Shown: positions 39,341 to 39,688 of the stretch, one piece after another
Layout: each line of letters opens with the position of its first letter
Numbering within the stretch: position 1 is the first letter of the stretch
Assembly: GCA_000146045.2 (NCBI GenBank)
Contig: BK006935.2
Span: 160,001 to 224,000, forward strand
DNA: 64,000 nucleotides
Source of the DNA: TPA_inf: Saccharomyces
Lineage: Eukaryota
Direction of reading: 5' to 3'
The notes under the pieces: model-generated
Told to the model about the DNA's origin: nothing
Seen by the model: the letters and a program-made list of their open reading frames with translations, nothing else
Database searches by the model: none
Made by a program: the position numbers and the translations under genes

Positions 39341-39688
39341 AGATTTAAGTTTTTGATCTGAGAAGCGAATGAAATGTCTTCAGTATCATTCAATTTAGCA
39401 TCCTTTTCATTGACTTTGAATGTTTTACCGCCCCAATCAATGCCATAATTAGCACCCCATGGATGGTCGTTTAAGGCCTGAAGAGTTATGGAGCATTGTG
39501 AATAAAATAAAAAATTACTTAGGAAAAGCATCGTGTTGAAGTAAAGCAAAGAGCAGCAAAAAATAAATGGAGTAAATATGAGAGAAATACAGATCAGAAT
39601 GGTTCGTTCAAGAGTCCATACTATAAACCCGATGGTGACTTTTGCACAAAAAAACAATGGTTTCGAAGATTGTGCTCATATTTTCTGA
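39341..39688 (+). pseudogene. Decayed duplicate of the last ~115 codons plus the stop of SWH1 (an OSBP-homolog C-terminus), same orientation, riddled with stops
   Basis: Alignment to 35810-36185: …tcattgactttgaatgttttaccgcccc… against …gcattgactttgaatgctttgccacccc…, and gaaaagcatcgtgttgaagtaaagcaaagagcagcaaaaaa against gaaaagcatcgtgttgaagtaaaacaaagggcagcaaaaaaag. Both end with the same terminus, ttcgaagattgtgctcatattttctga against ttaaagattgtgctgatattttctaa. Translated in the SWH1 frame it reads FLI*EANEMSSVSFNLASFSLTLNVLPPQSMP*LAPHGWSFKA*…KNNGFEDCAHIF*, against SWH1 [43 protein letters not shown]…KNHDFKDCADIF*. Confidence 0.7.

Follow-up and report, generated by a model that had tools for sequence, protein, structure and literature searches.

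A decayed partial copy of the SWH1 3' end between SWH1 and FLO1 in Saccharomyces cerevisiae

RESULTS

Features of the SWH1-FLO1 interval

We analyzed a 64,000-nt stretch of Saccharomyces cerevisiae DNA (BK006935.2, positions 160,001 to 224,000; referred to here as the window, with its first letter as position 1). On its plus strand, the intact gene SWH1 is followed by FLO1, and between the two lies a degenerate segment that resembles the 3' end of SWH1 (referred to here as the relic). The relic is preceded by a FLO-type upstream block (E1), and the upstream element of FLO1 (E2) lies further downstream. The coordinates of these features and the basis for each are presented in Table 1. Scans of the SWH1-FLO1 interval for tRNA genes and Rfam families returned no matches.

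TABLE 1 Positions of SWH1, the relic, and neighboring elements in the window
Feature	Coordinates	Strand	Basis
SWH1 (YAR042W), intact parent, 1188 aa	32619..36185	+	ORF list; 99% identical to S. cerevisiae Swh1p
Copied parent segment: from SWH1 codon ~977 through the stop and at least ~78 nt into the 3' flank	35547..36263	+	Motif position, profile limits, multiple alignment
FLO-type upstream block E1, adjoining the relic 5' end	38433..39225	+	Paralogous to 42529-43051, 50927-51591, and 57203-57929
Nonhomologous 5' junction, FLO upstream/SWH1 codon ~977	39224..39230		Alignments; precise to a few bases only
Relic 5' piece, SWH1 codons ~977-1003 (VDNSGDVKVTNHTTGDYCM...)	39226..39296	+	nhmmer, alignments
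Relic core, SWH1 codons ~1062-1188	39335..39688	+	BLASTN, nhmmer, PF01237
SWH1 3'-flanking portion of the relic (untranslated/terminator region)	39689..39790	+	Profile to 39766; S. uvarum and S. mikatae alignments
Antisense mechanical ORF, 108 aa from TTG, 66 aa from first ATG	39331..39657	-	Not a gene
E2, FLO1 upstream element, position equivalent to E1	42529..43051	+	nhmmer, E1 versus E2, E = 1.5e-6
FLO1 (YAR050W), next gene downstream, 1537 aa	43403..48016	+	ORF list; coordinates consistent with the supplement of PMC2822764

Homology to SWH1 and state of decay

A preliminary description of the window, made from its letters alone, had noted a same-strand match of ~350 bp to the 3' end of SWH1, and this match was borne out by alignment. 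When positions 38801-40200 were compared with the rest of the window by BLASTN, 39346-39614 matched SWH1 at 35816-36086 (76.6% identity; 274 nt; E = 8.5e-52), and a second match in the window paired 39666-39691 with 36163-36188 (92%). A significant alignment with the C-terminal end of an OSH gene was thus obtained. Local alignment of 39346-39691 with 35816-36188 gave 79% identity in ungapped columns and 72% in all columns. An nhmmer DNA profile built from four SWH1 3' ends (i.e., those of S. cerevisiae, S. kudriavzevii, S. arboricola, and S. uvarum) matched the relic at 39335-39766 (E = 1.8e-71). Translation and alignment likewise reproduced the preserved ending that had been described (GFEDCAHIF* in the relic; DFKDCADIF* in SWH1), with the stop at the same position in both. 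The stop codon of the relic, at 39686-39688, is TGA, and that of SWH1 is TAA.

None of the three forward frames of the relic is open. At least four in-frame stops had been reported; we counted five internal stops in the frame used at that time and eight in the frame-corrected translation. The core contains six frameshifting indels (+1, -4, +2, -1, -20, and -5), the net length of which (-27) leaves the first and last codons in one frame. The frame-corrected protein is 63% identical to Swh1p in the core and 53% identical overall. It resembles the OSBP-related proteins (e.g., Osh1/Swh1 and Osh2) in matching the C-terminal part of the Pfam family Oxysterol_BP (PF01237; profile positions 267-359 of 368; 60.8 bits; cutoff, 28.9 bits). 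However, unlike these proteins, it has no intact frame, no N-terminal ankyrin/PH region, and not the first ~70% of the lipid-binding domain, and the part of the domain that is present is interrupted by stops. The relic is therefore unable to encode a functional member of the OSBP family. Its significant homology to a parent gene, combined with stops, frameshifts, and truncation, is characteristic of a duplication-derived pseudogene or gene relic.

The sequence has also diverged much faster than its parent. Private substitutions of the relic occur at 48 of 340 sites, compared with about 6 to 12 in the parent lineage at the same sites, and they affect all three codon positions, whereas those among the SWH1 orthologues affect mainly third positions. 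The relic evolves at about the neutral rate, 4 to 5 times faster than the parent lineage.

Extent of the relic

The limits first given for the relic (39341-39688) proved too narrow, as the homology exceeds them at both ends. On the 3' side, homology to the SWH1 3' flank continues for ~78 nt beyond the stop according to the profile and for about 80 to 100 nt overall. This flank is in register with the S. uvarum SWH1 3' flank from +6 to +87, with a score reached by none of 1,000 shuffles. On the 5' side, a further piece (39238-39296; SWH1 codons ~982-1003) is weak and, when the S. cerevisiae sequence is considered by itself, not significant (nhmmer, E = 4.6). A relic in S. mikatae (see below) also has this piece, collinear and at identical model positions (nhmmer, E = 0.044). 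The translation of the 5' piece shows VKIT...G..C..H..A.G, and its start agrees with the start in the pseudogene catalogue of Lafontaine and Dujon. Together with the junction alignment, which is good to a few bases, this weak piece places the start of the relic at about 39226, i.e., at SWH1 codon ~977.

After the 5' piece, the S. cerevisiae and S. mikatae relics have in common an internal deletion of ~100 to 140 nt of SWH1 sequence, which falls in a poorly alignable stretch. We found no more SWH1 sequence upstream of 39226 (BLASTN and TBLASTN) and nothing of the first ~976 SWH1 codons between SWH1 and FLO1 (BLASTN, TBLASTN, and profile). The earlier statement that no upstream part of the gene is detectable thus holds for codons 1 to ~976 but was slightly too strong, given the 5' piece at 39226-39296.

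Identity of the parent gene

Two sources had been proposed for the relic, i.e., a local segmental duplication of the SWH1 3' end or a former paralog of SWH1, which has a whole-genome-duplication paralog in OSH2. We compared the relic with OSH2 and with SWH1 from six species (340 ungapped columns). Identity was 77% with SWH1 of S. cerevisiae, 79% with that of S. paradoxus, 73% with that of S. mikatae, 75 to 76% with those of S. kudriavzevii and S. arboricola, and 72% with that of S. uvarum. In contrast, identity with OSH2 was 60%, and the sole BLASTN match to that gene was 24 nt long.

These alignments identify the relic as a derivative of SWH1 rather than of OSH2, given the difference in identity (77% versus 60%), the SWH1 substitutions of within-genus age that it carries, the retained SWH1 3' flank, and the collinear downstream DNA (the last two of these are described further below). 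The same data support the first of the two proposed sources and led us to reject the second. The pairing of SWH1 with OSH2 as paralogs gives the second source its rationale, but an ohnolog is expected to diverge at least as deeply as OSH2 and to branch off before the Saccharomyces radiation, and the relic does neither: it carries substitutions that arose in the SWH1 lineage within the genus, and S. kudriavzevii, S. arboricola, and S. uvarum lack it in the 10 kb downstream of SWH1. We consider there to be practically no chance that the relic is a vestige of the whole-genome duplication or a fragment of OSH2 or another OSH gene.

Distribution in other Saccharomyces species and age

As the preliminary description had proposed, we examined the presence and synteny of the relic in other Saccharomyces species. 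A syntenic relic was detected in S. mikatae, and none was detected in the DNA downstream of SWH1 in four other species. The S. mikatae relic lies at about 17691-18370 of sequence L013 (nhmmer match, 17788-18370; E = 2.9e-126). Alignment of L013 from 16861 to 21128 with the window from 38393 to 43007 yielded four collinear blocks, the first of which spans the relic; the S. mikatae and S. cerevisiae relics are thus syntenic. The S. mikatae relic is a mosaic in which 17914-18313 is 98.5% identical to the SWH1 of that species, while the flanks are 50 to 75% identical. This pattern points to an old relic with a recent gene-conversion tract of ~400 nt from S. mikatae SWH1. The annotation of the S. 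mikatae genome includes a 74-aa Oxysterol_BP ORF within the relic, and the position of this ORF inside the recent tract accounts for its being open.

In the 10 kb downstream of SWH1, BLASTN, TBLASTN, and nhmmer detected no second SWH1-like segment in S. kudriavzevii (L001), S. arboricola (L005), or S. uvarum (L006 and L007), and in S. paradoxus CBS432 (L012) the 6 kb downstream of SWH1 contained no relic. On the evidence of this single strain, S. paradoxus has lost the relic, plausibly by recombination between repeats. In S. mikatae, the region containing the relic and E2 is bracketed by a near-identical direct repeat of ~630 nt (L013, 15040-15668 and 22680-23318; nhmmer score, 564). The 10 kb that follow S. 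mikatae SWH1 yielded nothing that resembles the N-terminal coding part of FLO1.

Outgroup-polarized site patterns provide an estimate of age. The relic shares 8 of the 10 derived states of the group consisting of S. cerevisiae, S. kudriavzevii, and S. arboricola, and 4 of the 6 derived states of the SWH1 stem of S. cerevisiae, S. paradoxus, and S. mikatae. Few of the lineage-private SWH1 states are present in it (S. cerevisiae, 0 of 6; S. paradoxus, 1 of 7; S. mikatae, 1 of 17). By these patterns, the copy branched from the SWH1 lineage inside the genus, a short time before the divergence of S. mikatae.

The junction, the FLO upstream blocks, and downstream collinearity

The S. paradoxus locus helps to define what lies on the two sides of the relic 5' end. 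Positions 17427-18415 of L012 are homologous to the SWH1-downstream DNA up to window position 39226 (E = 1.9e-53). Beyond the equivalent of 39226, the S. paradoxus sequence continues as the 5' end of a FLO-like coding region, which is frameshifted and has its ATG near 18510; the FLO start codon of this block is about 95 nt past the relic junction point. This junction point (window position 39226) is where the SWH1 fragment begins in both S. cerevisiae and S. mikatae. The alignment across the five paralogous or orthologous blocks is noisy at the junction, the position of which is accurate to within a few bases.

The FLO-like sequence of S. paradoxus CBS432 is an unannotated, frameshifted 5' remnant (L012, about 18510-19180) directly after the FLO upstream block. 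Its first ~200 nt score higher against FLO1 (52) than against YAR061W (27), and its later part matches YAR062W.

In the window, the FLO upstream blocks form a family of four plus-strand members, i.e., E1, E2, 50927-51591, and 57203-57929. E1 occupies the ~0.6 to 0.8 kb ahead of the junction, with its repeated block at 38433-39016. E1 is an extra, diverged copy located ~4.4 to 5.0 kb upstream of FLO1, now with no FLO gene behind it. The best-conserved part of E2 (42642-42765) is about 640 to 760 nt before the FLO1 ATG, and E2 overlaps the Cyc8-Tup1 site that has been reported, together with a DNase I hypersensitive site, near -700 of FLO1 (Fleming et al. 2014, PMC4316177).

The DNA that follows the relic is weakly collinear with the SWH1-downstream DNA of the outgroups (E values from 1e-4 to 1e-13). 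The S. uvarum sequence from +1324 to +1506 downstream of SWH1 corresponds to window 40256-40434, and that of S. kudriavzevii from +2458 to +3283 corresponds to window 41031-41911. The S. uvarum element up to its FLO ATG corresponds to 42514-43380, i.e., E2 up to the FLO1 ATG. With D and D' denoting the two intergenic segments, the order is SWH1 - D - E1 / relic - D' - E2 - FLO1 here and SWH1 - D - E - FLO in S. uvarum and S. paradoxus. A nontranscribed flank that is copied or collinear, as expected of a duplication-derived pseudogene, is thus present, although the downstream matches are weak.

An uninterrupted run of 26 T residues (T26; 39909-39934) begins about 220 nt past the relic stop. It resembles only other T-rich tracts in the window (e.g., near 63130) and may be an expansion of the T-rich tract behind the 3' end of SWH1.

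Proposed origin of the relic

Taken together, the data indicate that the relic is very probably a nonfunctional, unprocessed partial duplicate of SWH1, formed at the DNA level by an ancestral segmental duplication and dead on arrival. In an ancestor shared by S. cerevisiae, S. paradoxus, and S. mikatae, the part of SWH1 from codon ~977 to its downstream flank would have been duplicated, and the copy would have been joined at ~39224-39230 to a FLO upstream block by a nonhomologous junction. Because the copy had neither a promoter nor the first ~976 codons, it would have been dead from the start. It would then have decayed through the 48 substitutions per 340 sites, six frameshifting indels, eight stops, and internal deletions noted above. 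Gene conversion from SWH1 has recently overwritten ~400 nt of the S. mikatae orthologue, and one unit may have been lost in S. paradoxus by recombination between repeats.

The copied SWH1 flank, the junction, the collinear downstream DNA, and the lack of a poly(A) tract and of any Ty match argue for a genomic duplication rather than a retro-copy. Capture of a 5'-truncated SWH1 cDNA at a chromosome break would account for the missing 5' part and the retained 3' untranslated region, and retro-processed pseudogenes, few in number, have been reported in S. cerevisiae by Lafontaine and Dujon (PMC2876123). However, there is no A run where the homology ends (39766-39790), and the T26 tract, ~140 nt further on, is on the wrong strand for a tail. 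Moreover, the homology is not confined to the mature transcript; collinearity with the outgroups occurs 1.3 to 3.3 kb past the stop, well beyond the retained flank homology (+78 to +150). Finally, the relic flanks have no match to the Ty element of the window, the ORFs of which served as an internal control for Ty sequence. We thus regard a processed origin as highly improbable. The Ty element itself is recognizable from two long minus-strand ORFs at 597-5866 (1196 and 440 aa), which look like TYB and TYA.

Regarding the form of the duplication, the simplest mechanism would be a ~4-kb tandem duplication extending from the 3' part of SWH1 into the FLO upstream region and ending shortly before the FLO start. 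Two observations run against this simple model. First, the intergenic copies are not similar by BLASTN (36186-39345 versus 39689-43402), and the E element alone is detected between them by nhmmer. This dissimilarity may be due to the age of the copies, which predate a split across which orthologous intergenic DNA is ~59 to 62% identical. Second, the E elements do not group as predicted: in a distance tree, E2 joins the S. uvarum element (98% bootstrap), and E1 joins the 57-kb and 51-kb copies and S. paradoxus, although the p-distances behind these groupings are saturated (0.37 to 0.58) and conversion among the FLO blocks is possible.

An alternative is a complex duplication-insertion by template switching, in which synthesis would have passed from SWH1 beyond its stop into a block elsewhere in the FLO array, of the type now at 56.3 to 58.0 kb, and then back to codon ~977; another is a tandem duplication of ~22 kb followed by a deletion in the first copy. 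Besides the position of E2 in the tree, E1 with ~1 to 1.6 kb of upstream sequence is closer to the 57-kb block (nhmmer scores, 106 to 189) than to E2 (15). The p-distance between E1 and the 57-kb copy (0.41) is also similar to that between the orthologous E1 pair of S. cerevisiae and S. mikatae (0.37), compared with 0.51 between E1 and E2. On the other hand, both schemes require two junctions or an extra large deletion. The first ~330 to 470 nt past SWH1 in the first copy are still homologous to the outgroup SWH1 flanks, and the S. paradoxus FLO-like 5' end, as described above, is closer to FLO1 than to YAR061W. The supporting distances are also saturated, and FLO upstream blocks may convert one another. 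Such a larger or switched duplication is conceivable but on balance unlikely.

Assessment of possible functions

No function is indicated for the relic. It is situated 3.6 to 4.2 kb upstream of FLO1, inside the ~5-kb region in which a nucleosome array reportedly responds to Swi-Snf and Cyc8-Tup1 (PMC4316177). It was present before S. cerevisiae and S. mikatae split and has been retained in both, and an open 74-aa ORF is annotated within it in S. mikatae. These points could be explained if the relic had been retained as part of a regulatory chromatin domain of FLO1, as the source of a noncoding transcript, or, in S. mikatae, for a 74-aa Oxysterol_BP-tail peptide. However, retention for a function is very doubtful given the decay at about the neutral rate (4 to 5 times that of the parent lineage), the large lineage-specific deletions that the relic orthologues carry, and the complete loss in S. 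paradoxus (CBS432; one strain). In addition, the S. mikatae ORF lies inside the recent conversion tract, and there is no Rfam match.

We give similarly little credence to a more speculative reading, in which the relic and E1 would form a working part of the unusually long chromatin domain upstream of FLO1 (e.g., a spacer, a boundary, or a source of noncoding transcripts) or the relic would still be a gene-conversion partner of SWH1. If the latter were true, a dead fragment would occasionally swap sequence with the intact gene, as in the ~400-nt tract of S. mikatae (98.5% identity).

The minus-strand ORF that overlaps the relic had been called an antisense artefact, and our results agree. Its TTG start is a start under the bacterial code. 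A protein search of 5.8 billion clusters returned a single relative, an S. cerevisiae cluster of 66 aa, and no Pfam family matched. The frame is also called as a 181-aa product in nine Logan contigs, so that this spurious antisense frame is open for longer in some strains.

DISCUSSION

The relic is already known. Lafontaine and Dujon (2010, BMC Genomics 11:260, PMC2876123, Table S1) list a pseudogene, SACE0Ap7, on the W strand of chromosome A at 199239-199682, with YAR042W as the best match (family GL3C0241; relative length, 0.11; amino-acid divergence, 0.46; nucleotide divergence, 0.36; 8 stops; 5 frameshifts). Allowing for a release shift of ~9 nt, inferred from the FLO1 coordinates, this entry corresponds to window positions ~39248-39691. 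Its eight stops and its amino-acid divergence are also close to the values obtained here (eight stops; 53% amino-acid identity), and SACE0Ap7 and the relic are the same object. In the catalogue, SACE0Ap7 is marked as neither conserved nor duplicated, and no mechanism, date, or orthologue is given. Most S. cerevisiae pseudogenes were assigned to species-specific duplication in that study, with no specific history for SACE0Ap7. To this entry, we add the 3'-flank extension, the junction with the FLO block, corrected boundaries, a dating, a syntenic counterpart in S. mikatae that bears a conversion tract, and the lack of a relic in four species.

The relic also resembles the "1CDS-relic" tandem arrays (Despons et al. 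2010, PMC2822764) in that it is degenerate and truncated, shares the orientation of its parent, and lies a few kilobases from it, and it fits the birth-and-death fate of a tandem duplicate described for such arrays. It differs from them in that only the 3' ~18% of SWH1 was copied, so that there was never a second functional gene; it is not in the list given for chromosome A in that study.

As one of about 80 catalogued pseudogenes of S. cerevisiae, the relic matters little in itself. Its value is as a worked example of a partial duplicate that was probably dead on arrival and that appears to have met three fates in three sister species: in S. cerevisiae it has decayed slowly, in S. mikatae gene conversion has overwritten part of it, and in S. 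paradoxus it was lost. It also appears to mark an old rearrangement junction between the conserved core of chromosome I and a FLO-rich, subtelomere-like region. A direct consequence for annotation is that no gene should be assigned to the minus-strand ORF of 108 codons.

Two further observations concern SWH1 itself. In many annotations of S. cerevisiae strains, Swh1p has 1094 aa, and its best local alignment extends over just 58% of the query; automated gene models with a spurious intron or an internal gap seem to be the cause, and not a real variant. In addition, SWH1 and more than 6 kb of downstream DNA are nearly identical between S. kudriavzevii IFO 1802 (L001) and S. arboricola H-6 (L005) at about 10001-20000 (nhmmer score, 3672 over 4 kb). 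Swh1p is 96% identical between these two genomes, but the adjacent YAT1 is only 90% identical. The near-identity of the SWH1 region points to introgression in one of the two genomes or to a mix-up in its assembly.
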